The notes: a model not told the origin generated them from the letters alone. Positions 1,388 through 44,556 are shown, counted from the whole stretch's first letter. The stretch is 63,935 nucleotides of DNA, filler included, from Rozella allomycis CSF55 (GCA_000442015.1; 5 parts of 5 records of this genome joined end to end with filler, not necessarily neighbours in it); one strand, 5' to 3'. A program made the numbers and translations.

Positions 1388-4300
1388 CTATGTTGCTGTT
1401 GACGCTCGCCGGCTTAAGGTATTGACAGCTTCTACTTTTAAAACAGCGCTCTTAAACTTTTTCTTACTTTTACTAGCCCAGTACTCGTGATTTGAGTTTA
1501 AATTTGCAACGATATCTGGAATATTAAATACTTCATTAAAAGCCTGAAATAGTGGTTTGCAAACATACTCAATAAATCCAATCTGAGACTTGTAAAGCTA
1601 GTTTAAGCTAAATTAAATTCTTACTGGCGTGCTTTCTCTATCCATTAAGGGTGAAACTGGCATTTTCAAAGACTTTTCCAAATCTCCTTGTCTAAAAAAC
1701 TCCTCTGTCACCAAATTAGCCCATTGAATGCTAATTTCATTTGTACGAGATGGATTGCTCACATCACCACACTTTATCATCATTTTCATTATCAAAAGAT
1801 GTAGTTCATCATTATCATCTTTCATTGTTTGGATTTGTGGTATCTTTGTTGGTCATATAGAACATTTACTTTGGCCTTAAAATTTGACACAACAAGGAAA
1901 TGCATAGCAAAGTCANCTTGTATTTGTGGTATCTTTGTTGGTTATATAGTTTAATTACTTTGGCCTTAAAATTTGACACAACAAGGAAATGCATAGCAAA
2001 GTCAGTTGTGAGAACTAAATCTACGACAGTAGACCTAAACTTTTGCACTTTAGTGTCACTAATATTTCCTAAAAAGTTATGTTTGCCTAATAACCTAAAG
2101 GCCACTGATGCATGATGAGATTCAAGAACTGATTTATCATTATACAGAATAGCCAATTCAGATTTTGATGCTATAAGAAAATTATTGTTTAATCCTGGGT
2201 GATCGACATCATGAACAAGACAAGCAACATATAGGCAAAGTATATCAAAATCAGACAATATCCCTTTAATCTTTTCATGGTGAGATAATGAATACGCAGC
2301 TTGCAAAACATCTGCTCCATGGAATGCGTTATGATAAGGGTTTTCGGAGTGATAGTTTATTTCAATGGCCGTCAGATATTCAGCAAATTTTAGAGGGTCT
2401 ATCTTAAGGCTTAAAAACAAATCTCTTGATTTCATAGCATGAATTCCCATTAAAACAATCGGATGATCTTTAATTTCCAGTGTATTAAAACTCCAAAGCT
2501 TCATTTCGTTTTGGAGCCTATCCAATTTAGAATTGTATAAACTGTAGAGACTTTGAGGAAGAAAATCAAAATTTTCATTTTCTAGTTCAGTTTGGGTTTC
2601 ATTTTCGTTTATGGTAGGAGGAATCGCACTTGCTTCCTTGTCTGTTTCNGGCATGAATTCCCATTAAAACAATCGGATGATCCCTAATTTCTAGTGTATT
2701 AAAACTCCATAGCTTCATTTCGTTTTGAAGCCTATCCAATTTAGAATTATATAAACTGTAAAGACTTTGAGGAAGAAAATCAAAATTTTCATTTTCGATT
2801 TCAGTTTCGGTCTCATTTTCGTTTATGGTAGGAGGAATCGCACTTGCTTCCTTGTCAGCTTCTGGTTTTTGACTCAAGAACTGTGTTATTAAAAAATTCT
2901 ATTTTTTTCCATGGAAATATTTACCGCAAGCTCTTCATCTGACTCTGTCTCATTCTTAAAAGTCTTTCTAATTCTTTGTTCCAACAAACTCGAATGGTTT
3001 GATTCCATTTGACCCAAAGATTCCAAAACTTTTTGGAGCATTTCAATCTGTAATGAGTCTTTAGTGTTCTTCAGCAATGATTTTATTAGCCTGCTGGCTT
3101 CTGTAATCGAGTAGTTTTCCAACATCAAGTTTTCATAGAGACTAGAGTCCTCCTCTGTCAATATCTTAGAGGTACTGAGACTTGGTATCCTGAAACTTGC
3201 ACTTCCCTGTTTTAAATATGAGATGTCTGATGCTCGTCTATCACTAACGATTGACCCTGGACGTGTCATATGACCTCGGACTTCGCTAATGGATGGCGCT
3301 TTTCGAACTTCAGGCCTAATTTCAGAGCCATTCTTGGTATCTATTTGAATATTTGATGTTGCGATAACTTCTTCCTTTACTTGGCTTTGTTCGGCACCTT
3401 TAATAATGACTTTATCTGGAGCTGGAGCAGGGTTTATTGCATTTTGTTTTTTAAACTTCTTGGAGAAGCATACACATTTGTGCTTTTCTTTTTTACACAT
3501 ATACAATAATAATGCGATTATAGCTAAAAGCCCCAATATTAAGTTTTGTTTCACGTCCCAAATTGAAAATGAAATCGCTATGATCAAACCTAAAAAGTGA
3601 ACTTCATTGATGTAGAAAGATGTTGACTTGTAGATTTTGAAATAGGCATATTGAATTAGTAAATGAAGTGAAAAATCGTAAACAGTGACATCAGGCTTTG
3701 TCAAAAAATAATACGTGCAAATATTTGCTATCCATGTTATTTGAAAAGGGAGATACATGAGTTTTTGATTNGATTTGCAATGAATCTTTGGTGTTCTTCA
3801 GCAATGACTTCACTAGCCTACTGGCCTCTGTAATCGAGAAGTTTTCTAGCATCAAGTTCTCGTAGAGACTGGAGTCCTCCTCGGTCAATATCTTAGAGGT
3901 ACTCAGACTTGGTACCCTGAAACTCGCACTTCCTTGTTTTAAATATGAGATATCAGATGCTCGTCTATCACTAACGATGGATCCTGGACGAGTCATATGG
4001 CCTCGGACCTCGCTAATGGATGGAGCTTTTCGTACTTCGGGCTTTACTTCAGAGTTGGTCTTAGTATCTATTTGAATATTTGATGTTGCGATAATCTCTT
4101 CTTTAACTTGATTTTGTTCAGAACCTTTAATGATAATTTTATCTGGAGCTGGAAGGGGGTTTATAACATTTTGTTTTTTAAAGTTCTTGGAAAAACAGAT
4201 ACATTTATGCTTTTCTTTTTTACATATATACATTAATAAAACAATTATTGCAGAGAGCCCCAATATCAGGTTTTGTTTCACATCCCAAATTGAAAATGAA

Positions 4301-4806
4301 ATCGCTATGATCAAACTTAAAAAGTGAACTTCATTGATATAAAAAGATGTTGCCTTGTATATTTTGAAGTAGGCGTACTGAATAAGTAACTGAAGTGAAA
4401 AATCGTAAACGGAGATGTTGGGCTTTGTCAATATATAATACGTGCATATATTTGCTATCCATGTTATTTGAAAAGGGAGATACATGAGTTTTTGATTTAA
4501 TCGATATCGTTTTACACATATAATTTCAATAACGGAGATGGCGAACAAAAAATATTTCGTAACCAACACTGCAATTCCGTAATTTCCTAGCAAGTTACCA
4601 TTCATTGCATCAAAAACTATTTGGTAAAAAATTAGAGGTAATGTGATTATCATTTTTGTCTTGATGATACGGCGTACGTGGTCTCGATCGCTTAGTTACA
4701 ATGGAGAATATGTACATACATTTTGTGNGCCATAATTTCCAAGTAAGTAACCATTCATTGCATCAAAAACTATTTGGTACAAAATCAGAGGTAATGTGAT
4801 TATCAT
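1388..4806 (-). CDS. Class I cyclic-nucleotide phosphodiesterase with N-terminal hydrophobic (membrane) region; internally duplicated by assembly
   Basis: YHNAFHGADV, HDVDHPGLNN, LESHH, KCGDVSNP, EEFFRQGD and SQIGFI motifs. The N-terminal ~140 aa contain several TM-like segments. Segments are repeated around single Ns at 1916, 2649, 3771 and 4728; the start lies at 4653 or 4806 depending on the allele copy. Confidence 0.9.
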
Positions 4807-4957
4807 TTCTGTCTTGTGTTAACTTACGTGGTCTCGATCCGCTTAGTTACAATGGAGAATATGTACATACATATTTGTATTGATAATTTAAAGATTCTAA
4901 TTTATAAATAATTTGGTGATCTATTTTTGACAATTTTAAAATAACTGTTTTATTAGC

Positions 4958-6832
4958 TTATTCGGATGCGGATTTTATGAGCGCCTGCTTTATATCTTCA
5001 ATCAAGTCATCAGTATCTTCAATTCCAACTGAAAGTCTGATTAAGTTATCAGTTATTCCCAATGCAAGTCTGTCTTCTTTACTGACAGACCCATGAGTCA
5101 TCAAACAACTACTCAAAGATATATCTAGCTGTTACGGAAGTTCAGCCAAGGATTCAACACCACCCAAACTTTCCGCTAGTGTGAATATTTTCAACTCTGC
5201 CAAAAATTTATTNCTTATTCGCATGCAGATTTTATGAGCGCCTGCTTTATATCTTCAATCAAGTCTTCTGTATCTTCAATTCCAACCGAAAGCCTGATTA
5301 AATTATCAGTTATCCCTAATGCAAATCTGTCTTCTTTACTAACAGACCCATGAGTCATCAAGCAACTACTCAAAGATAAATCTAGTTGTTACGGAAGTTC
5401 AGCCAAGGATTCAACACCTCCCAAACTTTCCGCTAGTGTGAATATTTTCAACTCTGCCAAAAATTTATTGGCTACTTTCAAATCTCCGTTTATTCTAAAT
5501 GAAATCATGCCCCCGAATCCACTTTGCTGGCGAACAGCAAGGTCATGTTGAGGATGTGATTTTAAACCAGGGTAAATGACTTGTTTAACAAACTTAGNGC
5601 ATTGGCTACTTTCAAATCGCCATTTATTCTAAAGGAAATCATGCCCCCGAATCCACTCTGCTGACGAACAGCAAGGTCATATTGAGGATGTGATTTTAAA
5701 CCAGGGTAAATGACTTGTTTAACAAACTTAGTTTCTGAGGAAAGATAATTAGCAACTGCCAATGCGTTTCTTTGGTGTTTTTCCATTCTAACTTCCAAGG
5801 TTTTAATACCCCTATGCACAAGGTAGCAATCAAAAGGTGATGGCACCGCGCCAATAGCATTTTGTAANCTCCAAGGTTTTGATGCCCCTATGTACAAGGT
5901 AGCAATCAAAAGGTGATGGCACCGCGCCAATAGCATTTTGTAAAAATGCTAATTTCTCGTATACATTTTCATCTTTAATGACTGCGATGCCCATGACTGC
6001 ATCTGAATGACCATTTATATATTTTGTCATTGAATGGACTACAATATCAGCACCTAATTGAAGAGGCTTCTAATCATGATCCAGATTTTGGATAAATACT
6101 TGAAAATAAGGTGACAAAAAGGTATTGTCTACAACGACTAATATGTCTTTGTCGTGTTGGTGCACTATGTTAGATATTGCTTGTATGTCCACCAATCGTA
6201 GCTAGTGTTCCTTGGCTGAATTATTTACCGTCGGATTTGTAGGTGTTTCAATCCAAACCATCTAGTTTCAATATACTTTTTGGATTTACTTTAGTATTGC
6301 TCTTAATAGCGGATCTTATATTTTCAGGATCATTCAAATCAACAAAAGTTGTTTCATAGCCAATTTGCTTNTAATATACCTTTTGGATTTACTTTAGTAT
6401 TGCTCTTAATAGCAGATCTTATGTTTTCAGGATCATTCAAATCAACAAAAGTTGTTTCATAGCCAATTTGCTTGGCAACTTTGGTGAAGAATCGGTAGGT
6501 TCCACCATAAACATCGTTGACTGATATTATGTGAGAGCCCTTTGGGAGTAAGTGAACAATCGTCGCCGTCGTAGCAGAACCAGACGCAAAAGCCAATGCA
6601 TGTTTGCCACACTCGATTGCTGCCATTACACTTTCAAGATTGGATCTGGTTGGATTTCCAGAACGGGAATATTCAAATCCCTTTATTGTAAAGATATTTC
6701 AATGCATACCTTGTGTACTCCAACAGACTCTTGCTTAAATGTAGTGGATAACGATATTGGAGGAATTACGGCACCGGTTACAGGATCCGGCTCTTGACCC
6801 GAATGAATCAAATGTGTTGCGAAGTTTGTCAT
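4958..6832 (-). CDS. CYS3: Cystathionine gamma-lyase (PLP-dependent)
   Basis: [55 protein letters not shown] (PLP lysine), FTLAESLGG and LIRLSVGIE. Allelic duplicates around Ns. Confidence 0.95.
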
Positions 6833-11587: not shown

Positions 11588-14500
11588 CTAATTTATTAAA
11601 TCTTGTGATACGAGTAGTTTGCTTGTCTTTTTCCGTTTGACTGTATATGTTTTCATTTTGCCCTTGCCTTTAATTTGCTGGATACCTCTATAATCAAATT
11701 CAAAGTCGTCGCGCAGCAACATATAAACTTTTTCTGTGACTTGAATTTCTCCAGGGTTGGCACTTGATTCCTAATTGTTTTAAAATCTTTATTGTATTAC
11801 CATCCGCGACGCGACATTTACAGTATCGCCCCACACATCATATGAGAATTTACTCCTTCCAATTACTCCAGCGACCAGTGGCCCTATATGAATGCCAATC
11901 ATCAACTTGTATGCGGAATTGTATACCAAATTGATTTCATTTATTTTTGATTGGAGGGCCAACGCATATTCCAAAAAGCGTTTGTACTTTGCTTTTTTGG
12001 ATGCATCTTCCTTGTTTATTTGGTATTTGACATTAAGTTTTTCTTCGCTGGCAAGTTCAGTTTCAACTTCGCAGATCGTCAATGAGGGTGATCCAATATT
12101 GTTATCAATACTTTTACTTCTATATCGTTTTCTTGCCTGGGATTTATAATCTTCCAGTCCACAGGCACTCATGTAAGTTGCATATGAACCTAGTTAAATA
12201 ATTAAATTTAAGTGGTACCAACTGTTTTAATCTTCTCAACTCCATAAACAGGCAACAATTGATCGAATCTGCAAAAAATATCATTTAAGATGGTAATAGA
12301 CCTTTCATCTGTTTCTCTAAAATTGTGAACCGCGCAAAATAATATTCCCGCGCTTTCAATGCAATCTGAAATTTCTTTATCAGGATGGCGCTTCAGTCTG
12401 TCGACAATGTGTTTGGGCAAAAGTTTGTATAACAATTTTTCAGCTTTCAGTCTCATATCATCAATTTCAAATTTCCTTTGCTTCAGATCAGTTTTCAATA
12501 GATAAGTGATCCGAACTCCAAGCTCCAATTTTCTTGAAGAGAGTGACAAGAGTATAATAAGAAGAGTTGCGAAACCAACAGTGGAATAATTAGTACGTAT
12601 TAAGAATGATTTCGGCTGGAGGATGTGGAAGATGAGACTGTAGAATCCATTGATAATTGTTACAGATTTCCAACTGAAGCGGGTGTACAAAACTGAATTT
12701 AAAATTATAATGTAAATATCAGCGAGAATTAAATTATAATAACGCAAGAAAATGATGTGAAGAATAAGCTGAGTGATTTCAAATACAAAAAACCAAATAG
12801 GAAAAAGTAATCCATGTTTGATGTCAATTGAAATAATGTTTCTTGTGATATTTAATAATTTATCTCCAAATGTTCCAAGTTCTTTTAATAAAAAGTTCTT
12901 TGGGATTGATGATGATTGTCTAATAGCTTTGTCATAAAGATTGATTTTTAAATAAACGTAAAGGATTTGAAATAGTTGAAGAAAAAGGCCAATTAAACTA
13001 ATCCGCCATGGCCAACCTTCTACAATTAAAATGGAATTCTTTATTAGTTGAACTAGACAAATTATTGTAGTGAAAATTAAATTTAGCATTAATCGTCCAT
13101 TATATTTAGAGGAATGAATACTAAGATATTCTTGTTCTTCTTCATCCCTCTTAAAAGTAACTGTAAATTGGTTTATTGATTCATTCATTTTCTTTCTTAT
13201 TGGTTCCATTGTTTCATAAAAAGCTTTATTAGAATTTGGAATTGAATTTGTATTTTTAACTGTTGTGCTAAATAATGCTCTTCTATCAATTGTGTGTTGT
13301 CTAGAAACTGGAACAGACTTTGCAACACTAAACCTTCTGGGAATGATTGATAGTCTTCTACTTCTGGCAACTGGTTGATTATCTTCTAAAAATTCTACTT
13401 GTTTATCTTCTTTTACTTCTTGACTCAAATTGGGTTGAANTACTAAACCTTCTGGGAATGATTGATAGCCTTCTACTTCTGGAAACTGGTTGATTATCTT
13501 CTACAAATTCTACTTGTTTATCTTCTTTTACTTCTTGACTCAAATTGGGTTGAATTGTTTGATCCAAATTTAACTTTTTCACAGATTCATTAATATCAGT
13601 CACAAAATATGTTTGAATATTCCTTTTGGTATCTTCATGATACAAAACTTCCCCTTGTTCAAGGGTACAATAATCCTCTAATAAATTCTTCGTGTCTTCT
13701 GAAATGTGAACACTTGATGGTCGTCCCGTCTGCTCCATCATAGAAGCTATTGTAACATCATTCGACCAAACATCTTATTTTATTCAAACATTATTTTTTA
13801 CCGAAGATTATTCGTTCTTCACCTAAAATACCTGCAACAACATCTCCAGTGTGAATTCCAACACGAAGCTGCAAAGAAACTGGCTGAAGAGCAGTCAAAG
13901 TGCTAACCGCTCTAATCATTTTCTTCCCAACAACAACAGCTTTCAACGCATGATGAGACACTGGCTCAGGCAACCCCGCACAAAGCATATAACAGTCCCC
14001 AAGTGTCTTAATCTTTTCAAGCCCATACTGNGGACCAAACATCTAATTATATTTAAACATTAATTGTTACCAAAAATTATTCGTTCTTCGCCTAAAATAC
14101 CTGCAACTACATCTCCAGTGTGAATTCCAACACGAAGCTGCAAAGAAACTGGCTGAAGAGCAGTCAAAGTGCTAACCGCTCTAATCATTTTCTTTCCAAC
14201 AACAACAGCCTTCAACGCATGATGTGACACTGGCTCAGGCAATCCCGCGCAAAGCATATAACAGTCCCCAAGTGTCTTAATCTTTTCAAGTCCATAATGT
14301 GCGACAATATTATCAAATTCCAAGAATATACTATTCAAAAGTTCCACCAAATATTCAGCAGAAACGGTGGTCGACAATGTAGTAAATCCAACAATGTCTC
14401 CAAACAAAATTGTAACATTCCTATAACTATACGTTGGATTAGACATAATTCCATTCAAATCAACCTTTTCACCTTTGCGAAAATCATCCCAAACACCCTT

Positions 14501-15964
14501 TGGTATAATCGACAATGCCAGTGCATCCGCCTTTTCACTAGCCTCCTGCATCATCCTTCTTTCTTCCCACAACGAATACATTTTATAAAACTGCTTCTTT
14601 GAATCCGTCAACGACACAAACGAATACACCCATCCAATGAAATTAGCCACAATATAGTACAAGCAAGTCAAAGCGACAGATTTTTCGCAGTTGCCATTTG
14701 AATTTATCTGGCACACATCGTACCGCCTATTAGGATTAATAATTGACAGCGACAGCAAGATACAAGCTACGAGAACCAGCAGAGTCCCCATAGCGCCCAA
14801 ATACCTATGATCTGGTGTTTGCGTGGTGTACAGCAACGCTAGAAAGCAAAAAAAGTAGCCAGCTGGATCTGTTGACTAGAAATAATTATAAAGAAAACGT
14901 ACCATGGCATTCATATCCAAACACGATAATGCAACACCCAAGAAAAACATATATGTCGAAAAGACAGGAAACGCATTCTTCTTGTACCACTCTGTCCTCG
15001 TAATCACAACAAAGGCAACAGACAGCACAAGCATCGTCAGCGAAATAACATAATAAATAAATTTAAATCCCATATCAGCGGACACCAGATACGCATANAG
15101 TTTGCGTGGTGTACAGCAACGCTAGAAAACAAAAAAAGTAGCCAGCCGGGTCTGTTGACTAGAAATAATTAGAAAGAAAACGTACCATGGCATTCATATC
15201 CAAACACGATAATGCAACACCCAAGAAAAACATGTATGTCGAAAAGACGGGAAACGCATTCCTCTTGTACCACTCTGTCCTCGTAATCATAACAAAGGCA
15301 ACAGACAGCACAAGCATCGTCAGCGAAATGACATAATAAATAAATTTAAATCCCATATCAGCGGACACCAGATACGCATACGCAGCAAATAGCACTGATG
15401 CTAAAATTCCCAGGTTACCTCTTCCCCTCCATTGTTTCAGAAAAAATGGTTTTTGGTAATTTAAATATTGCTCTTGCAGCTTATCATCCAGCGTGATTTT
15501 CCAAGTAAATGATTTCAGAGGCGACTGTGCGAACGATGATATTGTTGAGACTATTGATACATCTGTATTTCGTCTCCGTGAGTTTGTTTCTGAAATGTCT
15601 GGCGGTTTTCTTGGTGATTGGTTTTGGTCATGTGGATTTGAAACGGACATAAATTGATTGTTGCCAGGATGGAGTGTTCCAAGNGATACGCATACGCAGC
15701 AAACAGCACTGATGCTAAAATTCCCAGGTTACCTCTTCCTCTCCATTGTTTCAGAAAAAATGGTTTTTGGTAATTTAAATATTGCTCTTGCAGCTTATCA
15801 TCCAGCGTGATTTTCCAAGTAAATGATTTCAGAGGTGACTGTGCGAACGATGATATTGTCGACACTATTGATACATCTGTATTTCGTCTTCGTGAGTTTG
15901 TTTCTGAAATATCTGGCGGTTTTCTTGGTGATTGGTTTTGGTCATGAGGATTTGAAACGGACAT
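11588..15964 (-). CDS. Transmembrane class III adenylyl cyclase with (TM-C1)-(TM-C2) architecture
   Basis: Two hydrophobic blocks, each followed by a cyclase domain. C1: ILFGDIVGFT, KTLGDCY, FDVWSNDV. C2: EKIKTVG, KFSYDVWGDTVNVASRMES, IKGKGKMKTY. Allelic duplicates at Ns 13440, 14031, 15098 and 15684. Confidence 0.92.
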
Positions 15965-16107
15965 AAATTGATGTTGCCAGGATGGAGTGTTCCAAGTTTA
16001 CGTATGTCATATTACTATACACTGACTAATCGCATGTAAAATAGACTATTTTGTATACAGTTATCTATTTTCTATCTTGAAAGACTGTATCTTTTGAGAA
16101 ATTTCTG

Positions 16108-29576: not shown

Positions 29577-30602
29577 TTAGACGGCATCGGTAATTATAAT
29601 TTGACGGATCTGCCCAGTGGTTGGAGATTTGATAGTCCATTCCTTGTTGATAACTTCTAGATTGAGTTTTCCACAATTGTTGCGCTTGATCTTTACGAGA
29701 TCAAAGTTGCATAAATAGCATTTGGAACTGGTGTTTGAGATGAAGACGGTTGAATCGCCAATATTTATATCCAATTTCCATATTTGGGGCTTGCGCTTTG
29801 GAACACAATTCTTTCTGCGCCCTTCTCTGTCATCGATTGTAAGGCAAAGGTCCTCCAAATCAGTAGATTTTGGATCTAAGAGAATAGCATTCACTTGATA
29901 GTCAGTATCTCCCACAGGTGATTTCAATAACAATTTTTTCAAGTATGGTGCTTCAGGTTTCGTGAACAAGTCTCCCTGTTTTCTCCAGAAATACGCCCCT
30001 TCGATTTCTATTCTTTTCTGAAATATATTAATTGGTACAGATACAAGCCTAAGAGCATTCTTTTGGGCGTCTTTGAATTGAATGGACCAAGCTTTGTTTA
30101 CAGGCACAATTTTCAGTTTCTCACAGCTCTTTCCTTGCTTCTTTTTTGTTAATTTCATTGTGTTGCATAAGCAGAAAGTGCTTGATTTTCCCGTCTTGGA
30201 GTTTTTCAGAACAGTTGAAACAGTCGCTGTGTTATGTGATTTGACATCGAGATTCCAGATACCGCTTTTGCCTACAGTATCACATAGAGTTTTATTCTGA
30301 GATTGCGCCTTTGAACTTAGACAATAAGCTTTCCCTGGTGCATCAAACGTGGAGTTGGGAAAAACAAGAAATGTACTGATCACATGCCAGGAGACCTTGT
30401 ATGACCATTTGACAATATCAGATGTGTTTGCTACGCATGAAGACATTAGAGTATCATTAAAACGTTCCATTCTATTCAAATATAATCCTTTAGTTTCTTG
30501 GCAAATTAATGAAGAGTCATCAATTGGCGTTGTATACTTGGTGCTTTCTGCAGACACAATACATATCAGAGCCAAGAGGCAGGAATATAGGAATGAAATC
30601 AT
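29577..30602 (-). CDS. Secreted Cys-rich protein with two ~150-aa repeats (possibly ricin-B/beta-trefoil-like)
   Basis: Intronless 341-aa ORF with signal peptide MISFLYSCLLALICIVSA. Repeat pairs: YCL...C...GIWNLDV vs LCL...C...QIWKLDI, and FCLCN...CEKLKI...NKAWSI vs CYLCN...CGKLNL...NKEWTI. Confidence 0.7.
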   Translation of the reverse strand: MISFLYSCLLALICIVSAESTKYTTPIDDSSLICQETKGLYLNRMERFNDTLMSSCVANTSDIVKWSYKVSWHVISTFLVFPNSTFDAPGKAYCLSSKAQSQNKTLCDTVGKSGIWNLDVKSHNTATVSTVLKNSKTGKSSTFCLCNTMKLTKKKQGKSCEKLKIVPVNKAWSIQFKDAQKNALRLVSVPINIFQKRIEIEGAYFWRKQGDLFTKPEAPYLKKLLLKSPVGDTDYQVNAILLDPKSTDLEDLCLTIDDREGRRKNCVPKRKPQIWKLDINIGDSTVFISNTSSKCYLCNFDLVKIKRNNCGKLNLEVINKEWTIKSPTTGQIRQIIITDAV

Positions 30603-30889
30603 GGATGAAAGACGAATTCGGATAAATGACGGATATTTTAACCGTTACTTAGAAGAAAATCCTCCGATTGGTGAATGGTAGGAACAATTGCTGAATTGAT
30701 AGTTTAAATTCATTTTCAGGTAATTATTTCTAGATTAAGCACTCTTTTGGTAAAATTCAATAGATTTGATNAGGTTTGAATTCGATTTCAGATAATTATT
30801 TCTAGATTAAGCACTGTTTTGGTAAAATTCAATAGATTTGATGTTTGTATTACGTAAATTTCTATCAGATTGGATTTGGACCCTGGTAG

Positions 30890-31912: not shown

Positions 31913-33634
31913 TCAACTTTTTGTTCTTCATTCTTTTTCGTCTTCTAAATTAATTCAATTAATATACATTACTTTAGATTTCTTGACTTTTTCGATTGGG
32001 ACTTCATTTGTTTCTTGGTTTTTAAGGTTGCGCTTTGAACGTTTCCTGATTTCTTTCGGTGCCTTATCAGAGTCTTTTAAAACTTCTTCATTAACAACCA
32101 CACTTGTTATTTCTTTTGGCTTTAGTCTTTCAATTTGTTCCAATTTGCCAGCTTCGTCATTTTCATCAATTTTGTCTTCAAGATCTTTCTTGCTTTCAGT
32201 ACCCTCAGACTCTTCAGGGGGCGGTGAAAAAGATAATCTTTCTCTTTTATGCAACTCTTGTTTTCTAAAACTCGAGGGCTCTTCGCCTAATTCTCTTTTT
32301 TCATGCTTTTGCAAGGTCAATATCAAATAATTTTCAATCAAATTTACAAAATCTTGTCTCTTTTCGAAGTTTACGCCATTTACAATGCAATCATTGCGGA
32401 TCCACACCTATTAAATACAATAATCCTACTTACCCTAGTATCATCACCTTCATCGGACGACCAATAAAGCTCATATGCTCTATATTGTAATCCAAAGCTA
32501 GGATTTCCCTTTCCAAACATAAGCCTATGGTCAATTATGCTCAAGTTTCGAACATGCTTTGGGATCGTCAATTGTTCCACCACCGTTTCTTTTTCAAATC
32601 CAGGCAAACTATTCGGAAATTGGGCAGCTTGATTCAACAAAATTTTCTTCCTGGAATAAGTCAATACTATATATTTACATTCTTTTCACATCGTTTACAC
32701 TTCTGTTGTGAAATTTTAACGTTTCGTCTCGATATATGGATCTATGACAATAATTATGCTGTTAAACAATTTTTTTGTATTTTACTCTTATTAAACCAGT
32801 TATCAAGTTTTCTATCTCATACAGAGTCCAACAACGGTCTGGGAATTCCATGTGTTTACAAAATTGAACAAGGGTGAAAATCCTAACCCTAATTTTTCAA
32901 AACTTAAAAATAGGTTGCAAAAAGTATTTTATTAGCTAGACGGTTATTATTTCGTCCGCTGGAATAGCTATGTTTTGCCTTTGTTATTAAATGGATAAAA
33001 TATACTTTAAGTTTTTCAAGTATTCGTCAAAGCTAGCAACATTCATGCCGTTAATATCTCTAATTTCAGAGAGTACATGCAAAATCTACCTTAATGCCGT
33101 AATTAAAATATGTGTTGATGAAACATCTTTTAGCCAGTATTCATACAAAAGTTCTTTCCAGTTACCATATTTTTCCTGTAACTCCTCAAGTGACAATAAT
33201 TCCACACAACGACCATTGTGATCATCTTCTCCGATTGGATCAGCATTAATCACTAAAACTTCATACTAACAAAATTCAAAGGCATCGTTACCAAGGAATT
33301 ACCATTGCACTGTAATATACAGGCTGCAACTGATTGTGTTTTAGGCTTCATTCCAATTATTGTCGACAACATATCAGCGTAATCTGGAATACCTTCAAGA
33401 TATTGCTTTTTCAAAACACGAAATCAATAAAATGTTTGGGATTAATATTTACCTGTCTTTTAAATCAACGTTTGTTCGCCTAACATGAAAATTGTACTTG
33501 ATATCATCTCCAATCTTTCTCCAGTTACCAACACCATGCTAAACATTTAAATTTAAAAAATTTACCTCCATAATACCATGGATCAAATCTTCTGTCTCCT
33601 TTTGAGACCAAGGGACCTTTGGTCGTTTTGTCAT
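31913..33634 (-). CDS. Telobox/TRF-like Myb protein with two Myb repeats and a possible chromo-like region; 3' end lost in gap
   Basis: Repeat 1: KVPWSQKETEDLIHGIMEHGVGNWRKI...RTNVDLKDRFRVLKK. Repeat 2: RCWTLYEIENLITGLIRHNY...KFHNRSVNDVKR. Splicing near 32880-32945 could not be resolved. Confidence 0.65.
33425..33452 (-). other. Candidate non-canonical GT-TG intron (28 nt)
   Basis: GTAAAT...TTATTG removal restores LKDR-FRVLKK in frame. The next AG, 19 nt downstream, gives a frame that hits a stop. Confidence 0.7.
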
Positions 33635-35909: not shown

Positions 35910-36058
35910 ACACCATGAATGATGGAACACCTATCAGCTTTCTTGAACAAATAAAAACTTGATGACTTTTTGAACAAACAAATAGAGACTTGATGATTTT
36001 TCGTTTTGTATTTCTTTTCTTACTTCCGATTTCAAAACATAAACAAAAACAAAAACAA

Positions 36059-36528
36059 ATGCCAAAATCAAAAACCGCAAACACTAGAACTAGGACATCA
36101 TTTTCTTTGGAACAAAAATTGGACTTGCAAGAATCTTTCGCTAAAAATCATAATTTAAGCCGCAGCGAAATTCAAAGACTAGCGCTAAAAACTAATTTAG
36201 AGCCCAAGGTCATTCAGACATGGTAATATTAATAGATAGTATTAATAGGTTCCAGAATCAAAGAAGTCGACAGAAAAAGACAAAGCGCAGATATAATTGG
36301 CATATACTTCATCCCGAAGATATCAAGGACACAAATTTTAGTCATAATCTCATGTCTAATGAATGCCATGATTTCATATCGCAATTGTACGAGGAAATTA
36401 CTAGCAATGAAAATGAATATCCTACAGATATCCATTCAACTAAAGAGCTCCTTTGTAATGAAAATTTCAAATTAGATCATTGCATATATCGCGAATCAGA
36501 AAGTACGTCCAATTTATGGGGCTATTAA
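36059..36528 (+). CDS. Homeodomain transcription factor (non-TALE, Q50)
   Basis: RTRTSFSLEQ...LQESF...LALKTNLEPKVIQTW|FQNQRSRQKK across one 26-nt intron. Confidence 0.9.
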
Positions 36529-36596
36529 ACTGGGATCATTAGTCAATTAAAATTTTGATTTTTTGAAATAAATGAACATTTTATTTTTAATGGATA

Positions 36597-38966
36597 TTAA
36601 TTGACGGACCACTAAATAGTTGTTCATTACATTCATTACCTCCATTAAACAAGAGTCCATGCCACCAGCACTTAGTAATGTTTTACCGTCTTTTGTGAAG
36701 CGAACGTTTGTGACAAGAGCTGAATGTCGTTTATATTCTTGAAATAGCTTCTAAATTTTTATAGCTAAAGGCTTTTACTTGGTCTGCAGGAAAATTAAAA
36801 ATGCGTACAACCCCAAAGTCGTCTCCTGATGCAATGACCTTTTTTGATGTGTCTACATCGCAAGAGTTAATCTACATGAAATGAATTCAGCAAACTCTTT
36901 TACGTCGGTAGCATCCATTCCAGACTGCCAAATACCCTGAGTCGCCCAGCTTCTTGTACAAGTATTTGTCGCCCACGAAATATCCTTTAGTTCAGATAAT
37001 TTCTTTTCCTGGGTGCCACTGTCCAAGTTCCCTGATTGAAAAAAAACATTTGTGTAATACAATATAATACTTCACAATCGGTGCTATTTGATATTAGATA
37101 TTTTCCATTGGAGGAAAAGTCAACATGAATTACATGGCTAGTATGTCCCTAACTTTACAAACCAAAAATAGCGTAACTTGAAGGCTTGCTTTTAAGACAA
37201 ATGGCTGCTTTGACGAATCATATATATTAATCGCAAAATTTTTGGAACAAACCGCTAGTCGCGTACCGTCGGGTGAGAATTTAACTTCTGTTATAGGCGA
37301 GGTGCTATCCTTTATGGTAAATAATACGTCCAGTTTGTGCGAGTTAATGCATACTACCTATATTTAATAAATCATTGCCTTTTACTTGGCCATTATCCAG
37401 TCCTGCCGCTAAGATTACCCCTTTGTTATTGTATTCACAGCATTTCACTTTGGCATCAAACTTAGTAGAGTGAATCATTGTATGAGAAACAGTATTCCAA
37501 GTTCTGAGAGTACCATCATCAGAACATGATGCAAACGTGTTTTTGTCATCAGGGTTAACAGATAGTCCCCAGATTTCTTGAGCCTCAATGCCTCTATGCC
37601 CCTTTGTATCAAATATAACTTATTTCTTACATTCATAAACACTTTTGAGCTTCCAGTTTTATGATCAACTAATGAGAGAGTTGAGTCCTCGAAGCCTACA
37701 ACTAATTCAGAGCCCAAAAAGTCAAAGCTTCTCACAGCTTGCCTCTCCTTAATAGTCCCCACATTCTTTAAATCTATACAATTAATTTTTTCATATGTCA
37801 TGTTAAATGTATTGATTAGACAATCGCCTCCTCCTGTCAACAACATGTCTCCATGATAAAGGATGTTATGTACAGGTCCATCATGAGCAGGAATCGATTT
37901 AAATACTTTATGATCTTTCCAAATTAGTATGTTTCCAGACGTCGTTCCAGTGGCAACCATGGAATCAGTAATATGTGCGATGGAAAGTAAAGTCTAGTTT
38001 TCTGATGGCTTTAAATTTGTACAGATATTTTATTTTTATCCCCAAAAATACCATTTTTCCCGGACAACTCTTGATTTGTATCGTTAAACGACCAAAATTT
38101 GTATAACTTTTCACCAACAGTTATAAATTCATAATTACTTAGCGGATTGAATGCAACATTAAGAATTCTTTGGGAATGTCCATGTACTTTACATATTGGA
38201 TAACTATTTCTTTCCCAGTCATAAATAAAGATCTATCAAATATGAAATTGACCACCAGTACTGTATGATTGTCGTCATCTCCAACTGCAACTAAGTACTT
38301 TCCGCTTGGTGAAAATGTCAAAGAACATATTGCTCTAACTTTGTCTGTAGTTAAAATTTTGATTGTTGGAATAGATTGATCAACAACTTGAGATGCTTCG
38401 CTGTAAATATGAATAGATGGTTCTTCCCCGACTAACGTTAATTAATTTAATGATTAGATACCTTGACCAGAAGCAATTAGGCCTGATTCCGGATGATAAG
38501 CAATAGAAACAACATCATCAGTGTGATGTGTGTAGAATATCTGTTTCCTTTCTTTAATGTCCATGAAGACGACGCAACCCGCGGCCGGGTAAATAACTCT
38601 ATCACTTTTCTTTCTTGAAAAGAAAAGGTTATTTCTGCATTTCTTGATTCTGTATCCATATATATAGTTGAGATTTAATTTTTTCGCAACATGAGTGATA
38701 TTCTTTTGTTGTTTATAGTCATGCGGAGTAATTATTTCATGCTTCCACGTATCTTTTAAAGATATCTTGGGCTTGGATTCTTTTGGATTGTATTTTCTGG
38801 GACCGTGTTTTGCAACATGACCTGGGTCATCATCTGACGACTCGATCTCTTCGATTTCTGATGGCTCTAATTTTAAATCTTTTTCATTATTCTTTTTAAA
38901 TTTAGGTTCCTGAATTTTAGACGCTTGTTCCAAATCTGAACCAGAACAGGGTATACTAATGGGCAT
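36597..38966 (-). CDS. EML/EMAP-like microtubule-associated protein (HELP + WD40)
   Basis: LNLNYIYGYR..CRNNL, HTDDVVSIA, GHTSHVIHVDF, SWATQGIW, ASGDDFGVVRIF and HSALVTNVRF. Confidence 0.9.
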
Positions 38967-38973
38967 CTGTGTG

Positions 38974-38987
38974 GTTGCTAAGTAAAG
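38974..38987. promoter_or_regulatory. X-box/RFX-like motif upstream of EML-like gene
   Basis: GTTGCTAAGTAAAG, 7 nt from the ATG. Confidence 0.45.
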
Positions 38988-39006
38988 GAATATAATAATT
39001 TTGTGT

Positions 39007-40199
39007 TTAAACTGATTTATTTGGATCGTGTTTTCGCTTTCTATGATAACTTGATTTAATGTGAGCGTTCCATTCACTTAGACCAATAATAATTTTTTCA
39101 GGGCATTTAGGACAAAGATATCGTTTTACTTCCGTTTTGAGGATTTTTTGCATTTGAAGGGTAGGAACTCCACCGTTAAACCAAGTTTCCACACTCTCGT
39201 ACAACCTGGATGGATCGTCTAGGCTGAATTCATCAACTAGTATGTCCTTGTCCTGGCAATCTGGAATTAATTTATTCCTGAACCAGCTCTGTTGCTTTCT
39301 AGCGTATCTCTTTGTATTCACTTGAATTTTCTGTATGAGTTCTTCAAGATTATAGATTTTATTAAGGTAAGAAACAATTTCTCGAAAACCTTAAAAATTA
39401 TAGGAAGATAAGATACCAATGGACTGAAATATAGAGTCAGTAAAGTCAATGTCATTCTTGTCTATCTTGTTAGAATCTAAAAATCTTTCAACTTCTTCTA
39501 CAGCGCCGTTCTACATATTTATGACCGTCGCGTCTTACCTGAATCATAAATACTGCGCGTTTGTCAATTTTCAAATCCAAAATCTCTAAATCTCTTTTTA
39601 TAATGACAACCATCGCATTTGGATATCTAATTATCGTTTCGTCTTTACTATTTTTCTTTTTTGAAAGTCTCTTTCATCAAATTTATACCGTTTTACTTTT
39701 AAAGCACTTTTTATTTTCCTTTCATCATTCGGATGATACCTATCTGCCTCTTCAGGACACTTATTCTTCAACATTTCGTATAAATCATCATTATCACATT
39801 CAAAATTAAAAGATTCATTTGTTTCATTATCAGCTGTGTAATTATCAAATAGTAAACTCTGAATGTAATAATTTGTTCCCCCAACAACAATTGGAAGCTT
39901 ATTTTGTCCCAAAATTCCTTGAATCTTTTACAATGATGACTATAAGTTACTATTGAAACGACTCTATCTGTATATATTTTCACATTAAATTCAGAATTCC
40001 AAGCAATTTCATTAAACATGTGATGTGGAACGTTTTTCATTTCATCTGCAGAAATTTTGTTAGTTATGATAGATAAACCTTTCAAACACTGCATCGCATC
40101 TGCATTAATGATTTCTCCGTTATATTTTAAAGCAAGTTGAACTGCCAAGTCAGATTTGCCAGAGGCTGTTGGGCCGCAAATAAATAAAATCTTTGACAT
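39007..40199 (-). CDS. MOD5: tRNA dimethylallyltransferase (Mod5/TRIT1)
   Basis: GPTASGKS, INADAMQ, ITNK, PIVVGGTNYY, QSIGFRE, TKRYARKQ..W and a C-terminal zinc finger. Confidence 0.95.
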
Positions 40200-40276
40200 G
40201 TGGCTTGATCAGTGAAACTGCTGAAAACTAGGTTGAAATAAATTCAAGTTTTATTGATCATTTAAGATTAGTGGTG

Positions 40277-40285
40277 GTTGCCAAG
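40277..40285. promoter_or_regulatory. RFX half-site upstream of CCDC96
   Basis: GTTGCCAAG, 5 nt before the ATG. Confidence 0.45.
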
Positions 40286-40290
40286 TTGAG

Positions 40291-41937
40291 ATGGAAGAGC
40301 AGGATCCCGCAAACGTAAGGAAATATATGTGTTGAAAACGAGTCGAATCTTGTCGATTTGTCATCGGCAGAAATACCTATTCCTATTAAAAATCAAGAAG
40401 AAGTTCAAGAAGAAGTAAAGGAAGAAGATAATGAAATTGCACAATCAGAGCAAGATAAACATAATTCCGCTGAAACTAAACCACCCACAGGAATATCTAG
40501 CAATTTAGAATTACGTGATACAAATATATCCGTTTCAAAAACTGTATCAGAAGAAGACATTGATCATTTCCATAAAATGGCTTCATATGCAAAGGTTGAC
40601 CCTTCTAAGAGGGGATATGATTCATTCACTTTGAAAGAGGCATTGAATCAAGTATCTTCGCTGAATGATTTGGCGTCTCTTCCTTCATTGCAAGAATTGT
40701 ATAATCTAGTGCGTGCTAAATCTGCCAGTCAAATACAAAAAGAAAAGGAGGAGCAAGAAGTTGCAGAAAAGAAGATTAAAGAGGTTGAAGAGGAAAATAA
40801 TCGAAAGATGAAGATTGAAGAACAAGATAGATTGTTAAAGATGAGAGTTGACAAGGACGAGTTATTGAATCGATTCCAGACGCTTCTTGATAGGAGAGAC
40901 AAGGCGAAATTGAAGAATTCAAGTCTGCAGCATCGATTGGGTGAATATTTCAAGAGAAAACGGGTATTTTATTACAATCAAACACATGATAGGCTGATGA
41001 AAGTAATAGGGACTCTGATAGATCTGGGAGTGATTGGGACCAAAGATATGCCAATAATTTACAAACTCTTGCTGAGCTAAGGATAAAGTTTGATCAAATT
41101 GCATCATCAAACAATAAAGTTGTGGTCGATTTGAAACAGGAATTAGAAACTAAACGAGCGGAGACTGAAGGATATGAAAAAGATTTCTTAAGAGCGAGAA
41201 AGAATGCTCTTTGTTCTTCAGAAAACGGAAGAACTGGAAAAAAGTTGCCGCCAAAAGTAAATTGTAGTTTACGAAATTTAGGAGGTTATTGAAGCGTTAG
41301 AACTAGCGGATTCTAAAAAGACCCAAGAAGTTGTAGCAATAAGATTGGAATATATAAAATTAAAGAATAAAATCAAGAGACAGGAACAAATTTTGAAGCA
41401 AAGGGAGGATTTGGGAGAAGGATTGCATTTGATTGATTTTGAGCAATTGAAAATAGAAAATCAAGCCTACAATGAAAAAATTGAAGAGAGAAACGAAGTA
41501 AAATATTAAATGTATTACAAAAGGAAATACTAAAGCTTAAAAGAAAGATTACTGTGATTGTTCAAATATTAACTCACATTAAAGAAAAGTTGAATTATAT
41601 TGAAGGGGATAACGAACGTAGAAATGCAGACCTTCAAGTTCTTGATTCCAAAGCAAATGAATTGAAGGATCGTTTACCAATTTTAAAAATGAAGAGAGAT
41701 TCCTTAAGGGCGCACAACACTTTGCTCCGTCAAAAGAACGGCCTCCTTGGCAATAGAGATTTGTTAAGAGATTATGAAAACAAAAAAGACAATTGTGAGA
41801 AATTACAAAAGGATGTCAAGCAACTTAAAGATAATTACGAATTCTTAACAAGCAAGCATAATGAAGTGAAAAGACAAATTCAAAAGATTCAAATTAAACA
41901 CAGAGTTGGAAACTTTGGACTTCTTCAATCAGTCTAA
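40291..41937 (+). CDS. CCDC96: Ciliary coiled-coil protein CCDC96/CFAP184-like
   Basis: GEGLHLIDFEQLKIENQAYNEKIEERNEE, ILTHIKEKL and LLRDY. Confidence 0.88.
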
Positions 41938-41956
41938 AAATAAAACCTTTTCTTTA

Positions 41957-43419
41957 TTAAAGTTTTGATGAACCCTTCAATTTCTTAAACAAGGGTTCCA
42001 ATGTCATAGCTAACATCATGGCACCCTTAATCTTCAATTTTCCACTGGCAAAAGCCTTTTGTCCTTTTTAATTTGATATATTCGATATACCAGAAAGTTT
42101 CCCAGAATAAAGTGCCATAAAATCTTCATCTTTCAATGTAATTGAAATGTCAGGCTTTAGATCACCTGCGCCACGAAAGATCTTCCCACTCTTTTTCAAA
42201 TCTAAGATCCATTTATCTTCCTTTTCGTCTCCCTTAATAATAAATTCTAAAATTCCATTAATCTTTGCAAGTACAATTAAATTCTTTACAGATTTCATCA
42301 GAGATTTCTTTTCAAATTCATTCATTAAAGAGAACTGTTTCTCCATTTCATTAAAGGCTAAATTAGATTGTAGATCCACAGGTTTGGGTGACTTTATATC
42401 CTTTTTGTTTCTATTTGGCAATTCATGTTTATATCCCTCGTCAAGAAAGAAATCTGGAAGAAAATCTTTATTTCCAGGAGTTGTTGCATATTGTTCGAGG
42501 GGTATGCTTTCATTCTTTAACAATTCTTCATCAATTGCAAATATCCCCCTAAGTAATCAAGAAACTTCAATGTAATGTACGTGTAGGACGCAGGTTGGGA
42601 GAGAAGAATGTAAGCAGCATCAGCCATGATTTCAGGCTTACGTCCCTGTGTTCCCATTTGTTCCTTGTTGCCTATAGCTTGCAAAGCGGCGGTATCAATC
42701 ACAGTCTTCGGCCACAGTGCGTTTACAGCAATGTTCTTTCCATTTAACATATTAGATTTACGTATGACTTTAACTCTCCGGCTAAGCCTAAAACTAACAA
42801 AGACATTCCATATTTTGCAATGGAATAGGCTACATGAGGAGCGAACCATCCTATCTCGCATGTTCAACCATCTTACTTTCCGAAATGCACAGTGGCGGGG
42901 ATATCATTAGTATCTTTGGAGAGCTTGATTTTTTCAAATATGGAATGGCATGCTTTGACATTAAAAATGTACCTCTTAAATTGATTTGGTTCATCAAATC
43001 AAATTTCTTTGAGGTTGTTTCTTCTGTAGATGTTAGACTAATAGCACTTGCATTATTTATCAATATATCTATTCCACCAAATCTAAATCCATGCATTTAT
43101 TTATCATTTACCTTGCTACAGTTTTTTCAATTGCATTCTTTATTTGCTCCTCATCTCGAATATCACATTGAATCGGTAAAGCTTTGCCTCCAATCTTTTC
43201 GATTTCTTCAGCTGCAGAGTAAATTGTTCCTGGTAACTGTTCAAAGTAATTCCAATTCATTACTTTTGGGTTAGGATCAGCTGTTTTTGCTGCAATCGCA
43301 ATATTGGCACCTTCTTGAGCCAATCTTTTCTATATTAACGCAATTAATTACCTCAACGCTATGGCTTTTCCGATTCCTCTTGAAGCGCCAGTAATTAGAA
43401 CTGTCTTTCCCTTGAACAT
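41957..43419 (-). CDS. HSDL2: Hydroxysteroid dehydrogenase-like 2 (SDR + SCP2, peroxisomal)
   Basis: TGASRGIG, AAKTADPNPKLPGTI, NNASAI, YSIAKYGMS, RKPEIMADAA, SCP2 domain and C-terminal SKL. Confidence 0.93.
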
Positions 43420-43589
43420 TAAAATTGAGAATTTTCAAATGGATGAAATACACTTCTATGAAGGTCAAAATGTAATGGCGAAGAATTGTTTAAGTGTAAA
43501 TATGCTGAAAAAGGAAACTTAATGAATCTCTAAACCTCTACATTGACATTGTACAATATTTTTTCTAATATACATGGAACATATCATCT

Positions 43590-44536
43590 TTATTCATCAA
43601 CTTTGACATACATATTCGGCTTAGAAAACTTGGCAATATCCTGTTCAAGGGCCTTTAGTTGGTTTTCAATACCTACTTTTCTATTTATTACTCGCCCAAA
43701 TAATCATTACCGGTTAATTTTTGGGATGGTATCTACAGTCAAGGATAACTTCTGGTAATCGGTGTTAAGTTTGTTCAATTTCGCCTGAAGCCCAGCAAGA
43801 ATGCTCAAACGCTCTTCTTCAGGGAGTAACTGGTATTGCTTATTTTCATTAGCCAGAGCTTCTTCTCTTTGTCTCTGCACTTCTTCATTATGTCTTTCTT
43901 CTTTTCTTTTATCCAAGTATTTGGGATTCTTCCCATAATCTTTCTTGGTCAAATAACTGTATGGTTCCTTGGGGACTTTCTGTGGAGCTTAATATGTATA
44001 AATAAAATCTTATACTTGAATTGATTATATTAACTGCATTTGTGGTGACAAAGTCCATGCTAGTCGGCTTTGGAATTACTGGACTCTCCTTCTTTGACGG
44101 AACGCTAGGACGAAGTCCTTTATCAGCATAATGAAACTCTTTCGCTAGTTTGACAAACAAACTGAACATTTACGTTGAGGTAATCGTGGCTCTTTGGAAT
44201 GCTTTTTGAGAAATTCCTTTGGTGGGNTTTTAACAAACAAATTGAACATTTACGTGGAGGTAATCGTGGCTCTTTGGAATGCTTTTTGAGAAATTCCTTT
44301 GGTGGGTTAACCTTAACTTTGACAGGTCCCATTGACGCTGCTGGTTTAGTTCCCGTTGTATATTCGCTTTTGGCCATATTGGAGAAGATTGATTTGTACA
44401 AAGGTGGATGTGGTTTTTCTGGTACCACTTCGGGTATAAGACGATAAACTGATTCTTGAAATGGGTCATCTAACACCGATGAAGAATTGGTATATTTTTC
44501 AGCTTTAACTGGATCTCTTGGAATAACAATTGTCAT
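43590..44536 (-). CDS. ENKUR: Enkurin (flagellar microtubule inner protein)
   Basis: ESVYRLIP...YKSIF, MGPVKV...PKEFLKKH, DFVTTNA, KDYGKNPKYL and EERLSILAGL. Confidence 0.9.
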
Positions 44537-44539
44537 TGT

Positions 44540-44556
44540 GTTTCTTAGTTACCATG
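44540..44556. promoter_or_regulatory. X-box/RFX-like motif upstream of enkurin
   Basis: GTTTCTTAGTTAC overlapping GTTACCATG, 3 nt from the ATG. Confidence 0.5.

Follow-up and report, generated by a model that had tools for sequence, protein, structure and literature searches.

Motif sites before five genes of the window

The DNA analysed here is a window of 63,935 bases (this word refers to the whole stretch), in which the 9-mer CYTRGYWAC, resembling the binding site of RFX transcription factors, stands shortly before the start codons of five genes. These encode an EML-like protein, a CCDC96-like protein, enkurin, a transmembrane adenylate cyclase and a cyclic-nucleotide phosphodiesterase. 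An earlier reading made from the DNA alone (hereafter the sequence-only reading) had proposed an RFX-controlled flagellar regulon in an organism of the fungal lineage. The lineage is borne out, as a 91-residue fragment of the enkurin is 100% identical to a protein of Rozella allomycis CSF55, so that the source is this species or one very near to it. Genes were mapped by a Pfam scan of 101 open frames in the window, and those marked by the motif are the following.

36550..38966, minus strand: EML-like gene, with HELP motif and EML beta-propellers (3′ limit approximate)
40291..41937, plus strand: CCDC96-like gene, with a C-terminal CCDC113/CCDC96 coiled coil (PF13870 at 2.6e-18)
43590..44536, minus strand: enkurin gene, with an Enkurin domain (PF13864 at 3.4e-16) and two introns
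11591..15964, minus strand: adenylate cyclase, with two class III cyclase domains and membrane regions (limits approximate; 5′ end doubled in the assembly)
1391..4653, minus strand: cyclic-nucleotide (3′5′) phosphodiesterase (PF00233 at 2.4e-45), with a membrane N-terminus (limits approximate)

Enkurin and CCDC96 are assigned to the axoneme by sequence membership. The N-terminus of the former matches the enkurin chains of solved doublet microtubules (7ung, 7rro, 8i7o and others; E 2.5e-11 and weaker), and the C-terminus of the latter the CCDC96 chains of the solved axonemes 9fqr and 8j07 (1.7e-17). The EML-like gene is classed here as microtubule-related rather than flagellar. The cyclase is of the animal transmembrane type; among the 120 best matches listed its closest relatives come from an aphelid transcriptome and a chytrid, the animal types 3, 8, 1 and 9 ranking next, and no Dikarya relative occurs among these 120. 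To judge from its relatives, the transmembrane adenylate cyclase is a candidate for loss together with the flagellum in higher fungi. The marked set is not purely flagellar, as it includes the cyclase and the phosphodiesterase. Among the window's open reading frames (ORFs) without an assigned family, no ciliary family was found even at E values up to 1.

The introns of the enkurin gene are very short (29 nucleotides (nt) at 44257-44285 and 28 nt at 43989-44016) and are supported by in-frame continuity with chytrid enkurins. CCDC96 begins with a first exon of 24 nt followed by a putative 28-nt intron at 40315-40342 (GTAAGG...AG), which is required for the frame. The public protein model P0002 (591 aa; 42071-44536, minus strand) merges enkurin and the adjacent short-chain dehydrogenase/SCP2 gene into one; these are distinct genes, each with an ATG of its own (44536 and 43419, respectively).

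The sites before the five genes are:

38974..38982, minus strand: EML site, CTTAGCAAC (GTTGCTAAG on the plus strand), 7 nt before the EML-like ATG (38966, minus strand); contains GTTGCTA
40277..40285, minus strand: CCDC96 site, CTTGGCAAC (GTTGCCAAG on the plus strand), 5 nt before the CCDC96 ATG (40291)
44544..44552, plus strand: enkurin site, CTTAGTTAC, 7 nt before the enkurin ATG (44536, minus strand)
15973..15981, minus strand: cyclase site, CCTGGCAAC (GTTGCCAGG on the plus strand), 8 nt before the transmembrane adenylate cyclase ATG; contains GTTGCCA
4691..4699, plus strand: phosphodiesterase site, CTTAGTTAC, 37 nt before the cyclic-nucleotide phosphodiesterase ATG (minus strand)

The first three had been placed within 8 nt of a start codon by the sequence-only reading, and all three are found there. 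The CCATG that it quoted stands on the other strand and does not mark where enkurin begins. The EML site falls within the 40 bp (38967-39006) that separate the EML ATG, at 38966, from the stop codon (39007-39009) of the upstream tRNA isopentenyltransferase gene. The intergenic regions of this very compact genome are generally 40-160 bp long. Identical copies of the cyclase site (15660-15668) and of the phosphodiesterase site (4842-4850) lie in tandem duplicates of ~313 bp and ~151 bp, respectively. An 80-bp duplicate within enkurin (44177-44256) is skipped in the contigs of two runs; we therefore treated the duplicates as assembly artefacts and counted five loci.

The motif runs forward relative to its gene at EML and the cyclase and in reverse at CCDC96, enkurin and the phosphodiesterase. 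Its presence in both orientations suggests that it is recognised as double-stranded DNA, in keeping with a DNA-binding factor, and speaks against an RNA element. In three intergenic regions shared by two genes the motif is 5-8 nt from the marked gene, the other gene being 78 nt (IPPT/CCDC96), 143 nt (enkurin/ABC1) or 127 nt (cyclase/unnamed) away.

The published binding site of an RFX monomer is GTTRCY, and the X-box is GTNRCC N0-3 RGYAAC (Coyle et al. 2023, PMC10530576). According to the same paper, choanoflagellates have the consensus GTTGCCA, and in Salpingoeca rosetta the spag6 promoter contains a validated site that reads GTTGCCAA. The likeness to RFX sites noticed in the sequence-only reading stands up to this comparison: GTTRCYA, the monomer consensus followed by A, is present in four of the five promoter sites, which are promoter-proximal and independent of orientation. 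The CCDC96 site holds the functional S. rosetta site GTTGCCAA exactly. The enkurin site also reads GTTACCA from 44548 on the plus strand, and it has the best X-box-like palindrome of the five (GTTTCT-T-AGTTAC). When the sites are aligned to an X-box with a one-base spacer, which is our own reading, the right halves agree at 5-6 of 6 positions and the left halves at 3-4 of 6. On this alignment the sites are half X-boxes, the CY-T before RGYAAC being read as a remnant of the left half.

The EML and CCDC96 sites (38966-38982; 40268-40285) have a common extension, GCAACCAC, right after the core (TGTGGTT and GGTGGTT on the other strand). This extension may belong to the recognition sequence or form an element of its own. 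None of the variants listed falls inside the motifs at EML, CCDC96 and enkurin; flanking variants lie at 38988, 39001, 39005 and 44568, too few for a footprint.

Over-representation of the motif before start codons

Both strands of the window were scanned for CYTRGYWAC, with dinucleotide-preserving shuffles (n=100) as the null. Eleven matches were observed against 3.17 expected, a number attained in none of the shuffles (0/100). Seven of them are non-coding and represent five loci, two of which are doubled by the assembly; all seven lie at gene 5′ ends, 5-37 nt before the start codon. The remaining four are coding, which is about the chance expectation.

Start codons were placed for 26 genes, and the upstream reach scored was 80 nt for the 9-mer. 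The best match within this reach was exact at 5 starts, had one mismatch at 1, two at 11 and three at 9, with no exact 9-mer at the 21 other placed starts. Shuffling of the 26 upstream windows (80 nt, 20,000 shuffles) gave a mean of 0.135 genes with the 9-mer, and five genes were never attained (0/20,000). The starts of RabGAP, SHQ1, Serinc, homeobox, RRM-like and two or three unnamed genes were not placed and stand outside these counts; they have no exact site, because all 11 exact matches have assigned places.

Since the 9-mer had been written from three of the sites, we used a second motif fixed by the literature, GTTRCYA, which is the RFX monomer site GTTRCY plus the A of the S. rosetta consensus. 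There are 34 copies in the window. Scored over 40 nt upstream, it precedes 4 of the 26 ATGs (adenylate cyclase, EML, CCDC96 and enkurin), where the expectation from length is 0.55 and that from shuffling 0.42 (P = 0.00105). The bare 6-mer GTTRCY, present 90 times in the window, gave a weaker result (5 genes against 1.34 expected, P = 0.009) and caught UTP10 too. Moreover, the cyclase and phosphodiesterase sites are independent of the definition of the 9-mer; by our own estimate from the background rate, ~0.08 such sites would be expected in the other 23 windows.

The carriers of the motif comprise both proven axonemal genes, which are the only two proven members of the flagellar category here, and the EML gene, against 2/23 others. 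At the scale of the window, to which this count applies, the motif is thus not equally frequent before non-ciliary genes, and none of the window's housekeeping genes is marked by it.

Other motif matches and assembly features

Three coding matches to the 9-mer lie in genes of assigned family:

6471: coding match in a Cys/Met-metabolism enzyme
8492: coding match in a GTPase-containing gene
43229: coding match in a short-chain dehydrogenase

A further candidate promoter site at 33287 (CTTGGTAAC-g-ATG) was rejected, as it falls within an exon of a Myb/SANT-like gene starting at 33634. Plus-strand ATGs directly after the motif at 4701 and 15982 were likewise rejected as gene starts, no open frame or workable splice following either of them. 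A copy of the motif with one mismatch, CTAAGTAAC, is found at 30644-30652, ~41 nt upstream of an unnamed minus-strand gene that starts at 30602 and encodes a signal peptide; it may be a weak member of the same set. The window also contains a homeodomain gene (35966-36525, plus strand) and the Myb/SANT-like gene (31955-33634, minus strand), neither of which is marked by the motif.

Tandem near-identical duplicates occur at 44177-44256, 4560-4881, 15480-16000 and 4958-5388. They are often found beside single N bases and break gene models, and they look like collapsed or duplicated assembly haplotypes rather than real repeats.

Comparison with known RFX systems

Half X-boxes are familiar from vertebrates, where CCTAGCAAC is the core of the classical X1 box of major histocompatibility complex (MHC) class II genes and of the RFX5-type motif in motif libraries. 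The MHC class II X1 box, the site of the RFX5 complex, is like the Rozella sites in being a half X-box beside other promoter elements. It is unlike them in belonging to a vertebrate immune-gene enhanceosome with a different gene set.

A close likeness is to the cRFXa regulon of the choanoflagellate S. rosetta, where a monomer-type motif is reported close to the transcription starts of ciliary genes. RFX motifs are reported to gather within 50 bp of the transcription start in choanoflagellates and animals, and for conserved ciliary genes 60.4% of RFX-like motifs are within that distance (PMC10530576). The supplement of that paper gives enkurin, a member of the cilia proteome, as lowered in the cRFXa mutant (log fold change -1.33, false discovery rate (FDR) 1.5e-14), together with a gene of the CCDC113 family (-1.11, FDR 6e-13) and one adenylate cyclase of the soluble type (-1.25). 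Enkurin and CCDC96 would accordingly fit a known RFX regulon, by analogy with S. rosetta, and the other marked genes would have been added in this lineage or would belong to a broader 'zoospore' set. The two systems differ in how they are known, the choanoflagellate regulon from mutants, reporters and protein-binding arrays and the Rozella set from its sequence. They differ also in lineage, Rozella belonging to Holomycota, in the placement of the Rozella sites 5-8 nt from the ATG, and in the addition of a cyclase, a phosphodiesterase and an EML gene.

The regulons of Caenorhabditis elegans DAF-19 and of animal RFX1/2/3 likewise have an RFX site upstream of ciliary genes, which can be used to predict them. 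Their X-boxes are typically palindromic and, in C. elegans, lie 100-250 bp upstream of the coding sequence (Chu et al. 2010), whereas in Rozella one strong half-site, with a weak counterpart, stands immediately ahead of the ATG. Crt1/Rfx1 and Sak1 of ascomycete yeasts are fungal RFX proteins with the same DNA specificity; unlike the factor envisaged here, they are described as controlling DNA-damage response and cell-cycle genes, with no ciliary targets, in fungi without cilia (PMC10530576).

As to RFX in flagellated fungi, Chu et al. 2010 found RFX together with intraflagellar transport genes in one fungus only, Allomyces, and proposed that the link between RFX and cilia came about close to the emergence of animals. 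Coyle et al. 2023 moved this link back to the ancestor that choanoflagellates share with animals, their account leaving its presence in the opisthokont stem undecided (PMC10530576). Our full-text searches of the literature on RFX in zoosporic fungi turned up no paper describing RFX sites at flagellar genes of fungi, in agreement with the view taken in the sequence-only reading that such control was not established in fungi. RFX-type control of fungal flagellar genes would be new for fungi and is plausible. The Pfam scan gave no match to the RFX DNA-binding domain (PF02257) among ORFs of at least 88 aa in the 64-kb window. An alignment of 37 enkurins yielded no usable conserved stretch as a cross-species footprint, and a 21-sequence enkurin alignment led to one metagenome locus, a 1180-bp intron-less, cDNA-like contig with 108 nt before the ATG and no promoter shown.

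A probable RFX-type regulon and the alternatives

We read the five sites as signs of a probable regulon in Holomycota, comprising zoospore and flagellar genes with an RFX-type half X-box. The lead is promising and depends on five genes, and to RFX-type control we assign a rough probability of 0.58. CYTRGY(A/T)AC would combine one strong RFX-type half-site (RGYAAC, i.e. GTTRCY) with what is left of the second half (CY plus one spacer base). A winged-helix factor of the RFX family would bind this half X-box in a very short promoter, at or beside the transcription start; the distance from the element to the ATG is 5-8 nt in four genes and 37 nt in the fifth. Because of the 5-8 nt spacing in four of the five genes, the element may help to fix the transcription start site or may sit in a very short leader. 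The factor would activate a zoospore gene set, consisting of enkurin, CCDC96, EML and the cyclic AMP (cAMP) pair of cyclase and phosphodiesterase, and these genes would be expressed together during zoospore formation as part of what would be a genome-wide pattern.

Several observations weigh against this proposal. At the level of the sites, the phosphodiesterase site, one base away, fails GTTRCY in both directions (GTTACAA or GTAACTA), two of the five carry AGTTAC, which differs from RGYAAC at one position, and none of the five contains a good palindromic X-box of the form GTNRCC N0-3 RGYAAC. In the 40 nt before its ATG the housekeeping gene UTP10 has a bare GTTGCT, and before this gene the sequence-only reading had rightly noticed partial AGCAAC matches. 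The five genes sampled all lie in a single 64-kb window that had been selected in a large scan, and the 9-mer was defined after three of the sites had been seen. In S. rosetta, two EML homologues are given as not RFX-dependent and as absent from the cilia proteome, and six phosphodiesterases as not lowered in the cRFXa mutant (PMC10530576 supplement). No RFX is reported in Batrachochytrium (Chu et al. 2010), and Spizellomyces is reported to express RFX and yet to have no enriched motif in its ciliome promoters (Coyle et al. 2023, PMC10530576). A paper of 2025 describes RFX as absent or much less abundant in early-diverging fungi.

Part of this evidence suits a different explanation, that of a real promoter element of the zoospore and flagellar set bound by a factor outside the RFX family, its likeness to RFX sites being coincidental or convergent. 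The enrichment and the position of the sites fit such a factor equally well, as do the AGTTAC sites, the lack of a palindrome and the reported scarcity of RFX in early-diverging fungi; the CAACCAC that follows the core at both EML and CCDC96 could belong to a different recognition sequence. Against it stand the GTTRCYA of four of the five sites and the exact choanoflagellate site at CCDC96. To our knowledge no other factor family combines such a site with a link to cilia. RFX specificity is, moreover, reported to be conserved from fungi to animals (PMC10530576). We regard a non-RFX factor as unlikely, although it is the most serious of the alternatives. It is still less probable, in our estimation a slim chance, that the pattern arose by accident in an AT-rich compact genome, from a degenerate 9-mer fixed post hoc in a window drawn from a very large scan. 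That the 9-mer was built from three of the sites that it describes, that only 26 starts were examined, that the exact coding matches are about as many as expected and that bare GTTRCY is so common in the window would all agree with chance. It leaves unexplained the two sites outside the motif's definition, the P value of ~0.001 for the independent 7-mer, the narrow spacing to the ATG in four of five sites and the location of every non-coding match at a gene 5′ end. Most improbable of all is an element acting at the level of RNA in the 5′ untranslated region, for example in the storage or translational control of zoospore mRNAs; a site so near the ATG (5-8 nt) may be transcribed, but with the motif in both orientations relative to the gene the RNAs would carry unrelated sequences.

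Implications for the evolution of ciliary gene control

In the accepted picture, the takeover of ciliary genes by RFX happened in the stem lineage that led to animals and choanoflagellates, and flagellated fungi regulate their flagella otherwise (Chu 2010; Piasecki 2010 as cited by Coyle; Coyle 2023). The motif before flagellar and cyclic-nucleotide genes of Rozella hints that RFX control of flagella may predate animals and their closest relatives. Tentatively, and at somewhat worse than even odds, we suggest that such control was not invented by animals or choanoflagellates, and that in Rozella it may exist in a stripped-down form in which zoospore genes would have as their main promoter element a single half X-box, set 5-8 nt ahead of the ATG, and the scheme would reach the zoospore's genes of cAMP signalling. 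If RFX-type sites do mark the flagellar genes of rozellids, the module would either come from the opisthokont ancestor and have been lost or blurred in chytrids, or have been recruited twice. Both readings bear on how the gene battery of the cilium became a regulated unit. In practical terms, a 9-mer immediately ahead of the ATG would offer an easy way, in a genome of such compactness, to predict zoospore and flagellar genes.

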